A program made the translations under genes and the position numbers. A DNA stretch of 64,000 nt from contig CP084166.1 of assembly GCA_021513695.1 (NCBI GenBank), positions 1,824,001 to 1,888,000 of the forward strand, written 5' to 3'. The first letter of the stretch is position 1; every line of letters starts with the position of its first letter. This document shows, one piece after another, positions 25,011 through 64,000 of the stretch. The notes beneath the pieces were generated by a model. The model was given only the letters and a program-made list of their open reading frames with translations. It did no database searches and was not told the DNA's origin. The stretch comes from Candidatus Heimdallarchaeum aukensis (GTDB lineage Archaea > Asgardarchaeota > Heimdallarchaeia > Heimdallarchaeales > Heimdallarchaeaceae).

Positions 25011-25080
25011 TTGTTTATCATAAATATAATGGAAAAATAGTATAAAAAACTAAAAAAAAAGCAAGATGTTATAAATTTAA

Positions 25081-26262
25081 TTAAAGTTTAACAACCCAAG
25101 GTTCAGTTTGTCTATTAGTTAAAAAAATGCAGCCATTTTCAGTAACCCTAATCATTTCTTCAATTGAACAATATCCATATCTTTGCAAATAAACATGTAG
25201 CTCTAGTGTAAAAATATTATTTTCCTCAATTTTCAATTCTGGTGCTTGTCCATATTTCTCCCACCTTGGCCCAATTAAGCAGCCACCATCATGAACATTA
25301 ATACCCACTTGATGACCTAATGCATGCATAAATTCAGAGTAACCAGCAGAAATAATATATTCTCGAGCAATCTTGTCAATCTCACATCCTTTTACTCCAG
25401 GTCTAATCTTACTGGCAGCTTCTGTAATTGCATTCTTACAAGTGTTAAATGCTTTTTCAACCTCATCTGGAACAGAATTTTCATTATCACCAAGAACATA
25501 TGTTAATCTTTGAATATCAGAAGCATAACCACCATATATTACTCCATAATCAACATTTACGAGATAACCACGTTTCACAGAGATTTTTGAAGAAGGATCA
25601 CCATGTCCAATAACAGTTTCTGGACCAACATTAATTAAAGGAGGATAAGCATACTTAACTCCAAATCTTTCATTATTGGCTTTTAGAATATTCGCAAGGT
25701 CAGTTTCAGTCATTCCAAGTTGTATACTATCTTTTAATAATTCATGACCTATTTCACTTATTTTTATAGCTTGTTTAATTCTCTCTACTTCTTCAGGGGT
25801 TTTCCTTCCTCGTAATGCAGACAATATTTTTTCAGAAGATACTAATCTATCCTTATATGGAGTGTCTTCAAGGATCTTTCTTAATTTTAAGAATAGACCA
25901 TAGGTTAATCCATCAGCTGCAACATTATCTTCAGAATAGTTAATTGCAATTGTTTTAGGTTTATAGCGCCCTAAAATATTAAGCAACCCATCCTTGATTC
26001 CTAAATCATAGAGTATAATTTCATCATAGATTTCTTGTTTTTCAATATTAGGAGCATCGTATCGACCTACAATTACTATTTTTTTGCCTTCTTTAGTCAA
26101 AATGAAACATGTTTGCCAAGTTAACCAAGTGGAGTCTGTTAAAAAGAAAAGACTTGGATCATGAATCTCTGATGTTTTTCTGACATAAGTCAACCACATG
26201 TCAATATCTAGCTCTTGAAGGATTGCTATTGCTTGATTTACTTTTTCTTTTATTAAACACAT
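25081..26262 (-). CDS. M24-family metallopeptidase (Xaa-Pro aminopeptidase/prolidase-like)
   Basis: Pita-bread-fold metal ligands D...D...HALGHQVGINVHDGG...E...E. 393 aa. Confidence 0.75.
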   Translation of the reverse strand: MCLIKEKVNQAIAILQELDIDMWLTYVRKTSEIHDPSLFFLTDSTWLTWQTCFILTKEGKKIVIVGRYDAPNIEKQEIYDEIILYDLGIKDGLLNILGRYKPKTIAINYSEDNVAADGLTYGLFLKLRKILEDTPYKDRLVSSEKILSALRGRKTPEEVERIKQAIKISEIGHELLKDSIQLGMTETDLANILKANNERFGVKYAYPPLINVGPETVIGHGDPSSKISVKRGYLVNVDYGVIYGGYASDIQRLTYVLGDNENSVPDEVEKAFNTCKNAITEAASKIRPGVKGCEIDKIAREYIISAGYSEFMHALGHQVGINVHDGGCLIGPRWEKYGQAPELKIEENNIFTLELHVYLQRYGYCSIEEMIRVTENGCIFLTNRQTEPWVVKL

Positions 26263-29286: not shown

Positions 29287-29340
29287 TAGTTTCTTGTATT
29301 TTTTTTCATTATATAATATTTATTATAGAAAATAAAATTA

Positions 29341-30359
29341 TGTTTACTCAATAGACTTGGGTTACACTTTTGGGCAATAGAGAAACATAGGGGTGATTCA
29401 TAAATCTTTCTCCTGGGGTGAGGAAGTTAAGAGATTGGTGAGGACGACTAAAATTGTAGTAAGAGCGGTAGTAGGAGAGATCAGCGTTGCAGTATTTTAG
29501 ACCTAATCTTTCCATCTCACGGATGATGGTTGGGTCCCATGTAGTCTTTCTACTTTTCCACATGTTTCGGGGTGAAAAACTCTAGCTCTGATGTGTTTTA
29601 TTTCCTCTGTTTGGCACCAACGGGAGAAGGTACTTGTTCCTCCTCTAACGGAAGAGAAGAGTGCTCCATTGTCCGTGAGGATAGACTCGGGGTAACCGTA
29701 CTCTTTTATTGCTTCCTCTAGCAAACTTATTATCTGCTCTTTTTTTGGCGCAAAAGGGTGGAATTTAGCTCCCAGACAGAATCGTGAGTGGTCGTCTATC
29801 AAGGTTATGAGGTGGAGATGTTGTCCCTGTTCTTCTACCCAGAATGGCCCTTTCACATCTATTTGCCAGAGTTCGTTAGGTTTTTGACGTTCAAAACTCT
29901 TGTATCGAGGTCTCTTCCTCTTTTTTCTATTAACCCATAAAGGAAGACCTAACTCTTTTATTACTTTCGTCACTGTCGTCTGAGAGAGTGCTTTTCCTTC
30001 TCTCTTCAACAAATAAGCTATCTTCTCCACATTCATTCCTTGTTTTATTCTTAACTCCCTTATCCTCTCTTTTAACTCCTCATCTACTTTTTTGTGTATA
30101 GTTTTTGGTCTGGAAGATCTATCTTTCCACCAACCATTCTCCTTCAGGGTTCTCTCTGAACCTCTTCAACCACTTATACACAAACTTCCTACTCACCATA
30201 TACTTGTGAGCTATCTCTTTTATCTTTTCTCCTTCCAAAGCTTTTTTAACCACAATCTTTCTTAGTTTCTCCAGGTTACGTTCGGGTTTGTTCATAATAT
30301 ATCACTTACCCACGTAACCCACTTCTATTTATTTGTTACCAATGTGAGTTGAGTATACA
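29341..30359 (-). mobile_element. IS481-like insertion sequence copy 1 (rve/DDE transposase), decayed. Flanked by a perfect 16-bp direct repeat ATAGAAAATAAAATTA at 29325-29340 and 30360-30375.
   Basis: Termini are TGTTTACTC... and ...GAGTATACA, an imperfect TIR of the form TGTwyACTC. The HTH plus integrase core read WQIDVKG, LTDNGALF and HPETCGKVER. The flanking direct repeats were read directly from the sequence. Confidence 0.7.
29348..30303 (-). pseudogene. Transposase of IS copy 1, disrupted by at least two frameshifts
   Basis: A 4-nt insertion after ...ENPEGEW compared with copy 2, and a frameshift after ...ERLHGT that splits the ORFs at 29503-30036 and 29348-29563. Confidence 0.65.
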
Positions 30360-30404
30360 ATAGAAAATAAAATTAGAATAAAATATTCTTCAAATTATAC
30401 AATT

Positions 30405-33997: not shown

Positions 33998-34015
33998 AAT
34001 TATAATTATAAAAAA
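33998..34015 (-). promoter_or_regulatory. Putative TATA-like promoter element for rpoD
   Basis: The minus strand reads ttttttataattataatt about 38-55 nt upstream of the rpoD ATG. By eye only. Confidence 0.25.
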
Positions 34016-34287
34016 GGTTTTCCATGATATACTTTTTTACGTAAAGTTTTTCGCACTCTGTCTTACAAGAGAGAAAACTAACTGAAGGGGTTTAATCTCT
34101 TGAAATCAACCCAAGCATACAATACTATAAAGAGGGTTGAGACAGACATCATACACGAATCGTGGGAATCATAAAGAAGAAAAGAACTAAAAACTCTTTT
34201 CTTCACTCCACGAGAGACAAAAAAGAAAGAATGAAGAAACTAACTCTAACACAAAAGGAGAGAATTAGTCCTTTCTTTTTTTGTCTA

Positions 34288-35742
34288 CTAGAACTGCAAC
34301 CAATGGCTGAGTCCTCGGCAAACAGTGAAATGAGTAGAACTGTATTTTTGACCAGTGAGGTAATCAGTAATAGTGTTTCCTCGGGGACGGAAAAGCGTCC
34401 CAAGGAACTTCCGAGCGATATTCATTGCTCCTGTGAGGTCAGAGTGGAAAGTATAACCGCAAGAGGAGCAATGTACTAACCCTCTAACGGGACGGACAAC
34501 TTTCCTTCCACAACGAGCACAGTAAGAAGATGTCCCTTTTTCTCCTATTATTAATATACGGTGAGGTTCAAAACCTCGGAGTATCAATGCTCGACGGAGA
34601 AGAGCAAGAACAAGGTAAAAATTCCACTGGTGAAGTTTTCTACGAAACTTACGAGTACTTTTACCTTTCCCTTTTTCTTTCTCCTCTCGAATGTGTTTAG
34701 GGTAACCTACAACAACGAAAAGGTCATACTTTCGAGCATAGGTCTCTATCGTCTGGACGATGTCGCTTATAAATTGGTGAGTATAAGCTCGTTTAACGTT
34801 TCTATATCTTCTTCGAAGAAGACCGAGAAAACGATAGATTTGATGTTTCTTACCCGACTGGTCGTTTAGAGCCGCTTTCCTCTGAAGACGGGAAAGTTTG
34901 AGTTTATATCGATGATTAACTCTATTCCACTGTTTGGTATGCCATAATTTTATCTCTTTACTTGTTAATTTCTTTTTAGGCGTCAGTAACACTCCTGCAG
35001 CAGGAATGTTTATCCCTATATCTATTCCCAGCACAGCTGGAGGAAGAGAAGAAGAATTTTCTTCTTCAGGAGGATAAAAAGAGGAAGAAAGAACTTTTAA
35101 TTGGAAATATACCCACCACTCACGTGTAGAACGTTTATATCTTAACTCTAGACTTTTTATTCTTCCTTTCTTTAACTCTTTCTGGTGGAAAGTGCTCATC
35201 TCTAAAGGTAACCACAATCTCTGGTGGTAAGGTGTTCCTCTTCTCCATGTATCTAACGAGTCTCTTACCCCCACCCACCAACGAGTGAGAGTATTATCCT
35301 TCTCTTTAGGTAGATGAACTAGAATGAACCTCTTTTTGTTAATTAATTGTCTTCTTGCTCTCTTTATCGGAGGACGAGTAGGACTGGGTCTATACCCTTG
35401 TTCGTATAGTTGCACAGCTATATCTCTACACTCTTGAAACTCATCGTGAGAACAATAAGGGAACATTTTCTTGAAATCGTGAGGAACAGTTTCTCTCCTT
35501 TCCTCTTCTTTAACTTTTGAAGTCGTTAGCGTCAGTTCATCTAGTTTTCCTTTATGTACCCTTATTTCCCCTTTTTTTGTTCTTCTACATACCTTTCTTC
35601 TGTTGTGATGTATTATTCTCACATACTTCTCTATTATTCTTGTGTCTCTTCCTGTTATTCTCCTTAACCTTTCCTTTTTCCTTGTCGTCAATACCTTATT
35701 CTTTACTCTCACTTTCAAGGTTTTGACGACGTCCTCCATCAT
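34288..35742 (-). CDS. tnpB: TnpB (IS200/IS605-family IS1341-type OrfB; OMEGA RNA-guided nuclease family)
   Basis: RuvC-I GIDIGINIPAAG, C4 zinc finger CARCGRK...CSSCGY, RuvC-III HSDLTGAMNIARK. 484 aa, very Arg/Lys-rich. GC-richer than its surroundings. Confidence 0.8.
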   Translation of the reverse strand: MMEDVVKTLKVRVKNKVLTTRKKERLRRITGRDTRIIEKYVRIIHHNRRKVCRRTKKGEIRVHKGKLDELTLTTSKVKEEERRETVPHDFKKMFPYCSHDEFQECRDIAVQLYEQGYRPSPTRPPIKRARRQLINKKRFILVHLPKEKDNTLTRWWVGVRDSLDTWRRGTPYHQRLWLPLEMSTFHQKELKKGRIKSLELRYKRSTREWWVYFQLKVLSSSFYPPEEENSSSLPPAVLGIDIGINIPAAGVLLTPKKKLTSKEIKLWHTKQWNRVNHRYKLKLSRLQRKAALNDQSGKKHQIYRFLGLLRRRYRNVKRAYTHQFISDIVQTIETYARKYDLFVVVGYPKHIREEKEKGKGKSTRKFRRKLHQWNFYLVLALLRRALILRGFEPHRILIIGEKGTSSYCARCGRKVVRPVRGLVHCSSCGYTFHSDLTGAMNIARKFLGTLFRPRGNTITDYLTGQKYSSTHFTVCRGLSHWLQF

Positions 35743-35918
35743 TCTTTTTTCCTTCCTTTCCTTTGTTTTCTTTTTTTTCTTCTCCTCTTTTTTCTTCTAT
35801 TTTTTTCACTATAAAAACCCCTCTCCTTCCTCTCCGCTCTTCTCTTTTTTCCTCACTTTGCCGCCAACAACTGTAAATTAAGTAAAAAAATAGACGCATG
35901 GTTGTTTTTTTCTATAAA

Positions 35919-36022
35919 TGGTGAGGGGAGGGCGATTCGAACGCCCGAACCACTAAGGAACGGATGGCCCATCTTCTTTAAGATCTTGAGTCCGTCGCCG
36001 TTGACCTCTTGGCTATCCCCCC
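35919..36022 (-). tRNA. tRNA-Leu (anticodon CAA) with a 19-nt canonical (37/38) intron; CCA encoded
   Basis: Folded by hand: acceptor GGGGGGA/UCCCCUC, D stem GCC/GGC with an 11-nt loop (type II), anticodon stem ACGGA/UCCGU, loop CUCAAG[intron AUCUUAAAGAAGAUGGGCC]A, 14-nt variable arm, T arm GGGCG-UUCGAAU-CGCCC, discriminator A73. Confidence 0.6.
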
Positions 36023-40667: not shown

Positions 40668-40763
40668 TGGAGCCAGGACGGGGATTTGAACCCCGGAGGC
40701 ATAAGCCAGCGGTTATCTCTCTGATGTTTCGAGACCGCCTCCGTACCACTAGGATATCCTGGC
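40668..40763 (-). tRNA. Type-II tRNA, anticodon CGA (Ser-like), with a short 13-nt intron in the anticodon loop; discriminator U73 followed by CCA
   Basis: Hand fold: acceptor GCCAGGA/UCCUGGC, anticodon stem GCGGU/ACCGC enclosing 20 nt, variable arm UGGCUUAUGCCUC (GGC/GCC stem), T arm CGGGG-UUCAAAU-CCCCG. Confidence 0.5.
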
Positions 40764-53559: not shown

Positions 53560-53722
53560 AAAACGTCACTAAAAAACTTTGTTTTTCCATATAACGAGAT
53601 GGATCACTATTCACTGCAAAAGTAAGAAAAACTATCTTTAAAGTAATTGCCAACCCAAGTGACCACTCTCATCGTTAGGTGGTTATAATTATTTAAAAAG
53701 TTTATCCAAAATTTTCCAATTT

Positions 53723-54742
53723 TGTATACTCTACCTACGTTGGTAACAAATAAATAGAAAGTGGGTTACGAGGGTAAATGATGAATTATGAACAAACCCG
53801 AACGTAACCTAGAGAGACTAAGAAAGATTGTGGTTAAAAAAGCTTTGGAAGGAGAAAAGAGAAGATAAAAAAGGTAGCTCACGACTATATGGTGAGTAGG
53901 AAGTTTGTGTATAAATGGTTAAAGAGGTTCAGAGAGAACCCTGAAGGAGAATGGTGGAAGGATAGATCTTCCAGACCAAAAACTATACACAGGAAAGTAG
54001 ATGAGGAGTTAAAAGAGAGGATAAGGGAGTTAAGAATAAAACAAGGAATGAATGTGGAGAAGATAGCTTATCTGTTGAAGAAAGAAGGAAGAGGATTATC
54101 GCGAAATACAGTAATTAAAGTAATAGGAGAGCTTGGTCTTCCTCTGTGGAGTAATAGGAAAAAGAGGAAGAGACCTCGATACAAGAGATTTGAGCGAGAA
54201 AAACCTAACGAACTCTGGCAGATAGATGTGAAAGGACCATTCTGGGTAGAAGAACAAGGATAGACAACATCTCCACCTCATAACTCTCATAGATGATCAC
54301 TCACGATTCTGTCTAGGAGCTAAACTTCACCCTTTTGCACCGAAAAAAGAGCAGATAATAAGTTTGCTAGAAGAAGCAATAGAAAAATATGGTCGCCCCG
54401 AGTCTATACTCACGGACAATGGAGCCCTCTTCTCTTCTGTTAGAGGAGGAACAAGTACCTTCTCCCGTTGGTGTCAAACAGAGGGAATAAAACACATCAG
54501 AGCTAGAGTTTTTCACCCTGAAACATGCGGAAAAGTAGAAAGACTACATGGAACCATCATCCGTGAGATGGAAAGATTAGGTCTAAAATACTGCAACTCC
54601 GACCTCTCTTACTATCGCTCGTACTACAATTTTAGTCGTCCTCACCAGTCTCTTAACCTCCTTACTCCTGGAGAAAGATTTATGAATCACCCTTACGTTT
54701 CTCTAGTGCCCAAAAGTGTAACCCATGTCTATTGAGTGAACA
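53723..54742 (+). mobile_element. IS481-like insertion sequence copy 2, decayed. Flanked by a perfect 16-bp direct repeat CAAAATTTTCCAATTT at 53707-53722 and 54743-54758.
   Basis: Termini are TGTATACTC... and ...GAGTGAACA. About 85-90% identical to copy 1 by eye, in inverted orientation. The direct repeats were read directly from the sequence. Confidence 0.7.
53785..54735 (+). pseudogene. Transposase of IS copy 2, disrupted by an indel in the HTH region and a 4-nt insertion that creates an in-frame TAG after ...WVEEQG
   Basis: The ORF fragments at 53889-54263 and 54364-54735 together span the HTH plus rve core (WQIDVKG, LTDNGALF, HPETCGKVER). Confidence 0.65.
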
Positions 54743-54824
54743 CAAAATTTTCCAATTTAATAAAAGAAGTATTTTAGTACAGAATTAAAAAGAATATTTT
54801 TGAATATAAAAAAAATGTAAACAT

Positions 54825-60949: not shown

Positions 60950-61951
60950 TCACCCTTGTTGACTTTTCCTTGATATATAAGTTATCTGTGGCTCTTTTTC
61001 TTGCTGCGGAGTTTTTCTCATGGGTTTTCTCAAAAATACTGTACGCTTTTTGCTTCCAGGAATTGAACCTTTAACTAAAACGTAGTTATTTTTTACCAGC
61101 CCATAATTTACAAATCCGCCATCAGGAATAATTTCTTTACCATCAGAACCTATTTGCATAATTCTTTTGTTGTATTCTGTACGAGTATGAAAACCCATTT
61201 GACCATGTCGGGGAACAGTCCACATTGTTCGTGCTGGGTGCCAGGGGCCTATTGAACCAACACCACGTTTTGTTCCTTTAGATTTGTGTTGTAGTATTTT
61301 GATTCCATGTCTTTTAACAGGTCCTTGGAAACCTTTTCCTTTTGTAACAGCAATTACATCGGCAAACTCTCCAGCTTTGAACACATCACGTATCATTACT
61401 TCCTTGCCTAATAGAGATAATCCATATTCGAATCCTTCAGAGGGACTATTACAACCGATTTTTATTTCGGCAATAGAGGGGGTTTTTGTACCTATCCCAG
61501 TCAAGTATGGTTGTGTATGTACAATGGCTCTGATCTCCACCATTTCGGGGAGCTTTTCTTCAAAGTTCTTTTTTGCTTTCTCAAAATCGTATTTTTTAGG
61601 GGTTTTAACACGCCGACGTAATTCTTCCTTATATTCAGAAGAGAAGAGATCAGCTGAAATACTAAGACCATATGGAGTCTTAGCGTAGCCGCGGAGACCA
61701 TAAACAACAATTGGTGGGGTCTCAATAACAGTGCAAGCTACTGTTACCTCGCGGTTCGCCAGATGACTTTGCCGGCGATCCTCTATATACGATAGTTGGC
61801 TCATTCCCGCTTTGATACCTAAGAAACCAAGCAACTTTGGCTGCCCGTTATATTCTGGCCAAGCTCTTGGTTTAGGAGTAAGCCTTGCGGCCCTATTCCT
61901 TCTGTATCCAAGCGATGAGCGACGAGGTGCATGGCTTGTTCTACTTCCCAT
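60950..61951 (-). CDS. rpl3: Ribosomal protein uL3
   Basis: 333 aa; ...FKAGEFADVIAVTKGKGFQGPVKRHGIKILQHKSKGTKRGVGSIGPWHPARTMWTVPRHGQMGFHTRTEYN... Its 5' two-thirds are duplicated at 63473-64000. Confidence 0.9.
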   Translation of the reverse strand: MGSRTSHAPRRSSLGYRRNRAARLTPKPRAWPEYNGQPKLLGFLGIKAGMSQLSYIEDRRQSHLANREVTVACTVIETPPIVVYGLRGYAKTPYGLSISADLFSSEYKEELRRRVKTPKKYDFEKAKKNFEEKLPEMVEIRAIVHTQPYLTGIGTKTPSIAEIKIGCNSPSEGFEYGLSLLGKEVMIRDVFKAGEFADVIAVTKGKGFQGPVKRHGIKILQHKSKGTKRGVGSIGPWHPARTMWTVPRHGQMGFHTRTEYNKRIMQIGSDGKEIIPDGGFVNYGLVKNNYVLVKGSIPGSKKRTVFLRKPMRKTPQQEKEPQITYISRKSQQG

Positions 61952-62630: not shown

Positions 62631-63539
62631 TCACCGAATACGTTCCAACAACTTATTTCGAACACGTTTTATATAATTATCAGAGAATCTAATAAATCTA
62701 ATTTTTTCTCCAGATTTGTAAATCTTTACATGTTCATTGTATCCTAACGTGTAGTGAGCCTGTCCATCAACAACAACGATGCCTGTTCTGAATTTAGCCT
62801 CGTTAGTAACTGTTACTACCGTATCAGTTGAAAAAACAATAGGAGAAACATTTACAATAAAGGGACAGATTGGAACAAGGCAAAAAGCTTCTACATTAGG
62901 CATAATCAAAGGTCCTCCAGCTGACCTTGCATATGCGCTAGAACCTGCACTTGTAGAAACGATTACACCATCACCTTCAATAACATAAAATAATTTGTCA
63001 TTAATTTCAACCTTTAACCTCATAATGTTTCCATGATTCTTTGGAACAATAGTTATATCATTAACTGCTGAAATAGGGGGATAAGACTCTGATGAGACAG
63101 CTACTGTTGAAAACTCTTCTATTATAAATTCATCATTCAATATTTTATTGATTGCCCAATCTAACTTTTGTGGAATTATCTCAGTAAGAAAACCTACACG
63201 ACCACAATTAACTCCCAAAATAGGAGATTCTTTCCATTGAGTAAAAGTTTTCAGGATTGTCCCATCTCCTCCAAAAACAATGACTAGATCGGGTTGTTGT
63301 CCTTGTATAATGAAATCAGATTTCCGTAAATTTTTAGCTAAAACTTGACTTAGAGCAACCTTATAACCCTTTTCTAATAACATAGAAAGCGCTTCTGATG
63401 CAGAAATCAAAGCACTTTCTTTTTCTGATGAAACTAGAAGTATTAAAGAATCTTTTGTCAGCAATGCCCTTCTGTTGTAGTATTTTGATTCCATGTCTTT
63501 TAACAGGTCCTTGGAAACCTTTTCCTTTTGTAACAGCAA
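62631..63539 (-). CDS. nadK: NAD(+) kinase. The first 20 codons lie in an alternative frame of the duplicated rpl3 fragment (chimeric start).
   Basis: GGDGT motif (VIVFGGDGTILK), NCGRVGFL, and the C-terminal NadK fold. The junction with the rpl3 copy is at 63472/63473. Confidence 0.75.
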   Translation of the reverse strand: MLLQKEKVSKDLLKDMESKYYNRRALLTKDSLILLVSSEKESALISASEALSMLLEKGYKVALSQVLAKNLRKSDFIIQGQQPDLVIVFGGDGTILKTFTQWKESPILGVNCGRVGFLTEIIPQKLDWAINKILNDEFIIEEFSTVAVSSESYPPISAVNDITIVPKNHGNIMRLKVEINDKLFYVIEGDGVIVSTSAGSSAYARSAGGPLIMPNVEAFCLVPICPFIVNVSPIVFSTDTVVTVTNEAKFRTGIVVVDGQAHYTLGYNEHVKIYKSGEKIRFIRFSDNYIKRVRNKLLERIR

Positions 63540-64000
63540 TTACATCGGCAAACTCTCCAGCTTTGAACACATCACGTATCATTACTTCCTTGCCTAATAG
63601 AGATAATCCATATTCGAATCCTTCAGAGGGACTATTACAACCGATTTTTATTTCGGCAATAGAGGGGGTTTTTGTACCTATCCCAGTCAAGTATGGTTGT
63701 GTATGTACAATGGCTCTGATCTCCACCATTTCGGGGAGCTTTTCTTCAAAGTTCTTTTTTGCTTTCTCAAAATCGTATTTTTTAGGGGTTTTAACACGCC
63801 GACGTAATTCTTCCTTATATTCAGAAGAGAAGAGATCAGCTGAAATACTAAGACCATATGGAGTCTTAGCGTAGCCGCGGAGACCATAAACAACAATTGG
63901 TGGGGTCTCAATAACAGTGCAAGCTACTGTTACCTCGCGGTTCGCCAGATGACTTTGCCGGCGATCCTCTATATACGATAGTTGGCTCATTCCCGCTTTG
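63361..64000 (-). pseudogene. Truncated second copy of rpl3 (N-terminal part only), fused out of frame to nadK sequence
   Basis: Identical to uL3 residues ...MSQLSYIEDRRQ...HGIKILQ, then QKGIADKRFF...RKGL* read from nadK DNA in the wrong frame. Confidence 0.7.
63473..64000. repeat. Perfect direct duplicate of 61287-61814, the 5' portion of rpl3; continues past the window end
   Basis: 528 of 528 nt identical by direct reading; the copies are offset by 2186 bp. It forms the truncated rpl3 ORF at 63361-63990, which ends in 37 out-of-frame codons. Confidence 0.85.

Follow-up and report, generated by a model that had tools for sequence, protein, structure and literature searches.

The 64,000-nt stretch of the Candidatus Heimdallarchaeum aukensis genome analyzed here (the window; contig CP084166.1, positions 1,824,001 to 1,888,000) carries a tnpB open reading frame (ORF) of 484 amino acids on its minus strand (34288-35742, ORF call on the window). 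The encoded protein is 100% identical to a Ca. H. aukensis protein that is annotated as "transposase" in GenBank. Upstream of tnpB lie a tRNA-Leu and then the S12 gene, while the gene row rpoD-L18e-L13-S9 follows downstream on the same strand. The tRNA-Leu is matched by Rfam RF00005 at 35922-36022 (minus strand, 41.8 bits), and its intron, its anticodon CAA and its encoded CCA were read from the sequence by eye. A preliminary description of this DNA had proposed a solo, compositionally distinct mobile element of the TnpB/OMEGA type between the tRNA-Leu and the rpoD promoter. Our analysis supports this proposal, delimits the element at both ends (Table 1) and assigns its nuclease to a published class with a relocated catalytic glutamate.

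The limits of the element emerge from a comparison with related copies and alleles. In BLAST searches against eight Ca. H. endolithica copies and five metagenome loci, similarity is confined to about 1.88 kb, starting and stopping at the element ends. The informative alleles were found through an exact-protein look-up of the RpoD encoded in the window, which gave the loci L053, L054 and L055. L053 comes from a strain whose RpoD protein is identical, and it is the empty-site allele with the same flanks that the preliminary description had asked to compare. It reads ...TAGAAAAAAAAACATC-CATG-GAAAACCTTTTTTATAATT..., and the occupied allele in the window reads ...AAAAAAACAAC-CATG-(element)-CATG-GAAAACC.... 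The spacing between S12 and rpoD is 2210 nt in the window vs. 336 nt in L053, a difference of exactly 1874 nt. The insertion site is a single CATG that follows the tRNA CCA after 18 nt and immediately precedes an intact rpoD promoter. L055 is an occupied, intact allele. L054 (1960-1990, JGI sample 3300033150) is occupied as well and has lost 49 nt of the right end, so that ...TTTTCTCTC directly joins ATGGAAAACC; L054 therefore has neither the inverted repeat of this end nor the 3' portion of the predicted omega-RNA. Very closely related strains whose RpoD proteins are identical differ in whether they carry the insertion. None of the fetched DNA contained an empty site for an H. endolithica copy.

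These comparisons also modify the earlier picture of the locus. An element is indeed present at 34050-35920 as first proposed, but its true limits are 34023 and 35900. The view that it occupies the slot of S13-S4-S11 upstream of rpoD is not borne out, as the empty allele L053 and the relatives L009 and L010 read S12, tRNA-Leu and rpoD directly. The pyrimidine tract at 35745-35900, formerly regarded as a spacer before the tRNA, is the left end of the element itself with its inverted repeat, a TATA-like box and a purine-rich leader. This box is kept as CTTTTTATAG in a subfamily with 40% protein identity, and we regard it as the putative tnpB promoter.

Table 1. Coordinates of the tnpB element, its predicted parts and the adjacent tRNA gene in the window.
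Feature	Position	Strand	Remarks
Whole element	34023-35900	-	1878 bp including CATG at both junctions; net insertion 1874 bp
Left-end inverted repeat CATGCGTCTATTTTTTTACTTAA	35878-35900	-	extra T and G>T relative to family consensus CATGCTTCTATTTTTTACGTAA
TATA-like box TTTTTATAG (putative promoter)	35809-35817	-	purine-rich stretch before it; in all copies
Purine-rich 5' leader	35743-35808	-	pyrimidine-rich on + strand
Asp241 codon (RuvC-I, GIDIGI)	35020-35022	-	invariant in 112/112 homologues
Gly346 codon, canonical RuvC-II Glu position	34705-34707	-	Gly in 111/112 homologues
Glu401 codon, alternative Glu	34540-34542	-	six residues before C408; invariant in 112/112 homologues
C4 zinc finger C408/C411/C425/C428	34459-34521	-	first three in 112/112, Cys428 in 111/112 homologues
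Asp435 codon (RuvC-III, in HSDLTGAMNIARK)	34438-34440	-	invariant in 112/112 homologues
Predicted omega-RNA scaffold, 265 nt	34023-34287	-	stop codon to right end; fold and covariation
Right-end inverted repeat TTACGTAAAAAAGTATATCATG	34023-34044	-	overlaps 3' end of predicted omega-RNA scaffold
Predicted guide segment GAAAACCTTTTTTATAATTA	34003-34022	-	flanking host DNA; upstream edge of rpoD promoter
tRNA-Leu(CAA)	35919-36022	-	intron; encoded CCA ending at 35919; 18 nt from element

Both sequence profiles and structural modeling place the 484-aa protein among the full-length nucleases of the TnpB/Cas12f fold. The only Pfam domain detected is the zinc-ribbon/TNB domain PF07282 (E 1.6e-8, 35 bits vs. 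a cutoff of 26.3), and the OrfB_IS605 domain (PF01385) was not detected in the protein. A profile built from 90 homologues matches solved chains of Cas12f, TnpB and Fanzor2 with E-values from 2e-20 to 2e-10 over residues ~195-450. An AlphaFold2 model based on the homologue alignment has a mean predicted local distance difference test (pLDDT) score of 87. Its top Foldseek matches are Cas12f, ISFba1 TnpB, ISDra2 TnpB and mimivirus Fanzor2, all with a probability of 1.0 and spanning about 460-500 columns, nearly the full length of the model. Model and matches together present the full-length WED-REC-RuvC-TNB fold of TnpB, and the RuvC-I Asp, the RuvC-III Asp and the C4 zinc finger occur in TnpB order. 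All motifs listed in the preliminary description were found again, i.e., GIDIGI (Asp241), the four cysteines C408/C411/C425/C428, HSDLTGAMNIARK (Asp435) and LFVVVGYPKH (Gly346). The tnpB ORF is uninterrupted, and its ratio of nonsynonymous to synonymous substitutions (dN/dS) of 0.11-0.22 in comparison with eight copies shows purifying selection.

The atypical RuvC-II region had been read either as a relocated catalytic glutamate or as its loss, as in nuclease-dead regulators. All column counts refer to an alignment of 112 full-length homologues, each of which stems from a Heimdall- or Thorarchaeota-type source. No normally placed RuvC-II glutamate appears in the alignment. The canonical position is occupied by Gly346, which the profile alignment pairs with the Glu of IQMEDL in AsCas12f (8j3r), while Glu401 aligns to the Pro of the D-P-x-Y-T-S strand of AsCas12f. 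In the AlphaFold2 model Glu401 ends a predicted strand (396-400) and Asp435 starts a helix (434-451), which agrees with the published topology. In the alternative-glutamate arrangement a Gly or Pro occupies the canonical site, and the catalytic Glu is found on the following strand of the RNase H fold, six positions ahead of the zinc finger. This arrangement has been catalogued as clades RIIr, Ser-2 and Ser-5 (PMC10691335) and as E_alt, with the pattern D{P}G x(120-160) E x6 CxxC x(12-18) CxxC x(4-8) D (PMC10711439). The corresponding regular expression with a non-proline RuvC-I matches residues 241-435 of the query and 109 of the 112 relatives. Judged by alignment, the atypical RuvC-II is the published E_alt (RIIr, TnpB2) arrangement, in line with the first of the two readings. 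Its alternative Glu is catalytically required in ApmFanzor, and the arrangement is active in the Thermoplasma TvTnpB (PMC10530073). The reading as a lost glutamate was rejected, as Asp241, Glu401 and Asp435 form a triad that is invariant throughout the family.

The closest described relatives in this respect are the E_alt/RIIr/TnpB2 proteins, e.g., TvTnpB of Thermoplasma volcanium and clade RIIr-5 (PMC10530073, PMC10691335, PMC10711439). Like the family studied here, they have Gly at the canonical Glu position, the alternative Glu six residues before a C4 zinc finger, and a family consensus RuvC-III of the NADxN type. They too are encoded by solo, multi-copy elements with a 3' guide-RNA region. 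The Heimdallarchaeum subfamily differs in the RuvC-III motif itself, which is HSDLTG instead of NADLNG. TvTnpB belongs to an IS605 element with a Y1 TnpA and the target-adjacent motif (TAM) NTGAC, whereas the element described here has inverted-repeat ends, a CATG target and no transposase found beside it. Fanzor2 and Fanzor2* (mimivirus ApmFz2, PDB 9b0l, and mollusc and algal elements) share the E_alt site as well, and 9b0l is matched by the family profile (E 2.4e-10) and by Foldseek (probability 1.0). In Fanzor2* the nuclease resides in inverted-repeat transposons of which the repeat and the duplication form part of the guide RNA scaffold. Fanzors carry DPG at RuvC-I. This variant, which defines Fanzors and pro-Fanzors, occurs in 0/112 homologues, the query having D-I-G and the family D-L-G, and the host is archaeal. 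In profile searches the family scores no closer to Fanzor than to Cas12f.

The region between the tnpB stop codon and the right end has properties that would suit an omega-RNA, being a conserved segment with RNA-like structure. Its consensus fold comprises 57 pairs in eight helices, six of which contain compensatory changes; 97.7% of the cells are paired vs. 43-58% with slid partners, and none of 500 shuffles reaches the observed covariation score. The window sequence itself folds with a z-score of -4.85 relative to shuffles. The Jukes-Cantor (JC) distance of the 3' region to other copies is 0.10-0.28, while the synonymous divergence (dS) of the ORF in the same copies is 0.35-1.08, indicating that the 3' region is constrained about as strongly as the protein (dN/dS 0.11-0.22). 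Covariation, folding and slow evolution agree with each other and argue for the omega-RNA that the preliminary description had placed downstream of the stop. Its supposedly higher GC content at 34060-34290 was not found, as the GC of the 3' region (0.336) is at the host level and the GC peak at 34200-34650 corresponds to the 3' end of the ORF. The outermost of the long-range helices is formed with ACUUUAC, a segment that overlaps the right inverted repeat. A guide-RNA helix overlapping the element end has also been reported for Fanzor and IS607 guide RNAs (PMC10711439). An Rfam search returned no family at the gathering threshold and only chance-level matches at E<1, and the 3' region of the P0028 subfamily folds no better than shuffles (z -0.66). 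By analogy with TnpB and IS607 biology (PMC10711439), the guide would be read from the 20 nt of host DNA next to the right end, a flank that is identical in the empty allele L053.

The element terminates in imperfect inverted repeats tipped by CATG, in which it differs from IS200/IS605 elements. We compared left ends with reverse-complemented right ends and obtained the null from random 32-mers of the window (8.9 +/- 2.6 identities of 32; P of 20 or more about 5e-5). A type A copy (L002, ...TTTTTTACGTAA) has 18/22 identities over the first 22 positions and 20/32 over the first 32, a type B copy (L007, ...TTTACTTTTTGCGAA) 20/22 and 27/32, and a copy of the P0028 subfamily (L036, ...TTTCCGAC...CCGACAA) 17/22 and 25/32. 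The inverted repeat reads CATGnTTnnnTTTTTTACGTAA in type A and CATGnTTTACTTTTTGCGAA in type B. The internal repeat sequence varies among subfamilies with both ends changing together, and the CATG tips are found in all lineages. Each end additionally contains two short motif repeats (TTTAC, TTGCGAA or TYCCGAC). Three subfamilies have inverted repeats of 22-32 bp where IS200/IS605 elements have asymmetric hairpin ends, and the implicit framing of this tnpB as an IS200/IS605 derivative does not fit such ends. The contigs of the Thorarchaeota-type subfamily all share one context and so give no information on its ends. A search of the window and the fetched loci with the inverted-repeat motif revealed no additional copies.

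At the junctions, the left flank is CATG in 9/9 copies, and the right end is CAT in 11/11 copies, followed by G in eight, A in two and T in one. Inside the right end CATG is always preceded by T, which is the case in none of 13 left flanks. With one CATG in the empty allele, CATG at both junctions when occupied and no other duplication, the site has the shared core that characterizes IS607 insertions. Together, the end data fit recombination at a short matching core (IS607-like) or a 2-bp duplication, and fit poorly with a 4-bp duplication or single-strand hairpins.

In composition the element is distinct, though only moderately. Its GC content is 0.384 (0.398 for the ORF) vs. 0.329 for the window, which ranks it in the top 1.2% of windows of the same size. 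The GC content at third codon positions (GC3) is 0.34 in tnpB vs. 0.19-0.27 in neighboring genes, and Arg makes up 12% of the protein vs. 2-9% in the neighbors; these figures agree with the GC-richer, arginine-biased ORF noted before. At least four paralogues are present in H. aukensis and many in H. endolithica, and an identical protein of the subfamily with 40% identity occurs in at least three contexts. The genome paper lists multi-copy "transposase" families with up to 27 copies, without a TnpB analysis (PMC8813620). The absence of tnpA, as originally stated, was confirmed in that homology among nine or more copies is limited to the 1.88-kb unit with its single ORF.

We propose, with a probability of roughly 80%, that the element is a non-autonomous insertion sequence (IS) with an E_alt TnpB as its sole gene, which would home by means of an omega-RNA and be moved in trans. 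Transcription would start from the TATA-like box in the left end, and the 3' region would be processed to an omega-RNA of which the last ~16-20 nt are read from the flank (GAAAACCTTTTTT...). TnpB and its omega-RNA would then cut the empty site consisting of CATG plus flank, either at the excised donor site or in an empty homologous allele. Homologous repair from an occupied copy would restore or spread the element, by analogy with other TnpBs. The T before CATG inside the right end, which never occurs at left flanks, could spare the occupied site, giving a TAM of roughly VCATG. The enzyme is probably devoid of collateral cleavage of single-stranded DNA, again by analogy (PMC10530073). Movement would depend on an enzyme supplied in trans. 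Our favored guess, which is a conjecture, is an IS607-like double-strand recombinase that uses a short core inside CATG, because the same motif occurs at the junctions and in the target without further duplication, each end has two subterminal repeats and the TnpB is of the E_alt type. The right end-left end (RE-LE) junction of an excised circle would then read ...ATCATGCTTCTA....

The likeness to IS607 (ISXfa1, IS1535; PMC10711439, PMC6188088) indeed comprises the same short motif at junctions and target without a longer duplication, one or more fixed nucleotides by the right end, short subterminal repeats and E_alt TnpBs, which are typical of IS607. It is incomplete, however: the IS607 core is GG and a serine TnpA is encoded beside tnpB, whereas here the core lies within a palindromic CATG and no serine recombinase was found adjacent to tnpB in any family context examined. 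That IS607 elements are described as being without terminal inverted repeats (PMC6188088), while the ends here are inverted repeats, is one of several points that weigh against our proposal. In addition, no transposase adjoins the family members in eight context look-ups with seven protein queries, covering about 10 distinct contexts. The protein scores 78 bits with the NCBIfam model guided_TnpB (NF040570), under its cutoff of 100, which marks it as a divergent TnpB member. The left repeat of the window copy has degenerated slightly (12/22 identities without gaps; one additional T, and ACTTAA in place of ACGTAA), and a T6 run within the predicted guide could act as an early terminator of archaeal transcription. 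Finally, the four H. aukensis paralogues are only 86-95% identical to one another and show no sign of a recent burst, a divergence that suggests old, separately maintained lineages. One ORF upstream of tnpB (in L015) was considered as a recombinase candidate and turned out to encode a membrane/zinc-ribbon protein. A scan of viral contigs revealed only TnpBs at 22-31% identity and no transposase.

The terminal inverted repeats with their conserved tips, and the single CATG in the empty vs. two in the occupied allele, could also result from cut-and-paste transposition by a DDE or Cas1-like transposase with a duplication of 2-4 bp (AT or CATG), the more so as TnpBs in inverted-repeat DDE transposons and Cas1-linked Asgard TnpBs are on record (PMC10691335). 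We consider this doubtful, since the right end shows CATA or CATT against CATG on the left in 3/11 copies, which argues against a 4-bp duplication, and no DDE or Cas1 gene lies beside any member examined. The ends of the only DDE element of the window (rve; 29312-30360 and 53722-54776) are unrelated to those described here, and its duplication measures 14 bp. Still less probable is a classical solo tnpB of IS200/IS605 (IS1341-like), moved as a single strand by a Y1 TnpA encoded elsewhere and inserted 3' of CATG. Solo tnpB genes are the commonest IS200/IS605 form (PMC10691335), insertion here occurs by a fixed tetranucleotide without a long duplication, and several databases label relatives of the protein IS605 OrfB. 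Yet the ends are true inverted repeats which, in subfamily B and the P0028 subfamily, are non-palindromic and so have no hairpin in common; CATG stands at both junctions, PF01385 is missing from the domain matches, and no Y1 TnpA gene (PF01797) neighbors the family in the ~10 contexts, the element itself having one ORF. ISDra2 TnpB (IS200/IS605; PDB 8exa, 8h1j) resembles the protein in fold and domain order and has its omega-RNA likewise 3' across the right end, but it has a canonical Glu, hairpin ends and a Y1 TnpA, yields a profile E of 0.005 and is ~75 aa shorter.

Two further explanations question the activity of this copy rather than its mode of transposition. The degenerate left repeat and the T6 run, along with the sister allele L054 that lacks 49 nt of the right end and a nearest genome paralogue that is at most 89% identical, would suit an immobile relic whose protein may still be made without transposition or homing. 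We find this unlikely in view of an intact ORF with all catalytic residues, an intact and conserved right end and RNA region, and a site that is polymorphic among near-identical strains, pointing to recent gain or precise loss. The TldR proteins, reported by Wiegand and colleagues in 2024, are reportedly nuclease-dead TnpB repressors in which catalytic residues and the C-terminus are missing and whose genes stay at a fixed position next to those that they target. A domesticated protein of this kind, repressing the adjacent rpoD promoter under RNA guidance, would be consistent with the missing canonical RuvC-II Glu and with a predicted guide at the upstream edge of that host promoter. It is nevertheless highly improbable: Glu401 and both Asp residues are invariant (112/112), the C-terminus is not truncated, the element is mobile and multi-copy at unrelated sites, and strains with an identical RpoD lack it at this locus. 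A non-autonomous IS with an apparently active E_alt TnpB remains our preferred interpretation.

The insertion site has a history of its own. L009, L010 and L013, which are metagenome relatives, were considered as clean empty sites and set aside: the element is absent, but the spacer between tRNA-Leu and rpoD differs. In these loci a 112-nt terminal fragment of an rve-type IS (L009:4784-4895; identified by BLAST) fills the spacer and abuts the same ATGGAAAACC flank, indicating that the site was hit independently by two element types. The fragment in L009 holds the reverse complement of GTTCACTCA, a motif reported near Asgard Cas1-TnpB loci (PMC10691335). As a link between the TnpB element and Cas1-TnpB loci this motif was discarded, since it belongs to the inverted repeat of the rve IS instead. 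This IS, which is ~1.05 kb long and encodes an rve-type DDE transposase (Pfam rve, E 2.8e-17), has two inverted, 88.7% identical copies in the window, at 29312-30360 (minus strand) and 53722-54776 (plus strand). Both copies are frameshifted. The IS starts with TGTATACTC... and finishes with ...GAGTGAACACA, and a direct repeat of 14 bp, AAATTTTCCAATTT, lies on either side of the second copy. In L012 (1433-1873), the same tRNA-Leu is followed by a segment of ~240 nt ending in the right-end-like AAACTTTATACAAAAAAGTAGATCAT and then by DNA that is 93% identical to window 25078-25292. This arrangement could have arisen by chimeric assembly, or from a miniature derivative together with a rearrangement.

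Other observations concern more distant family members and the remainder of the window. A gene for a DUF87 protein (HerA/FtsK-like ATPase) lies directly upstream and on the same strand of two distant members, P0039 and P0045, which are 37-38% identical to the query (L016:3325-5694, L017:235-2604, L061:1957-3612); this DUF87-tnpB association may be recurrent. At 40668-40763 (minus strand) ARAGORN predicts a tRNA of 96 nt with a four-base anticodon (cgaa) and no assigned type, for which Rfam reports nothing at the gathering threshold; the prediction may be false or represent a further tRNA with an intron. A 531-bp direct repeat with 99.8% identity occupies 61284-61814 and 63470-64000, the second copy reaching the edge of the window.

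In summary, the element is a well-preserved and essentially ordinary member of a described class and leaves the understanding of TnpB unchanged. The relocated-glutamate site, solo non-autonomous copies and Asgard TnpBs have all been published before, and the one mildly unusual point is that inverted-repeat ends and a CATG target occur together with the lack of a transposase. We regard it as rather unlikely that the Asgard elements represent an undescribed transposon type with inverted repeats, a CATG target, nothing but an E_alt TnpB and a non-adjacent recombinase, either new or host-encoded. If they did, they would be an archaeal parallel to the Fanzors that ride inverted-repeat transposons with the repeat in the guide RNA, and would place the association of an E_alt nuclease with a double-strand inverted-repeat transposon in the lineage closest to eukaryotes. 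The inverted-repeat ends of the element also put right the assumption that all solo tnpB genes derive from IS200/IS605. Its value is mainly practical, as it offers an E_alt TnpB system that is cleanly delimited, apparently active and derived from a complete Asgard genome. With the protein, a candidate omega-RNA, a candidate TAM (CATG, perhaps VCATG), the guide start and natural empty and occupied alleles all defined, the H. aukensis element could go straight to biochemical or genome-editing tests.

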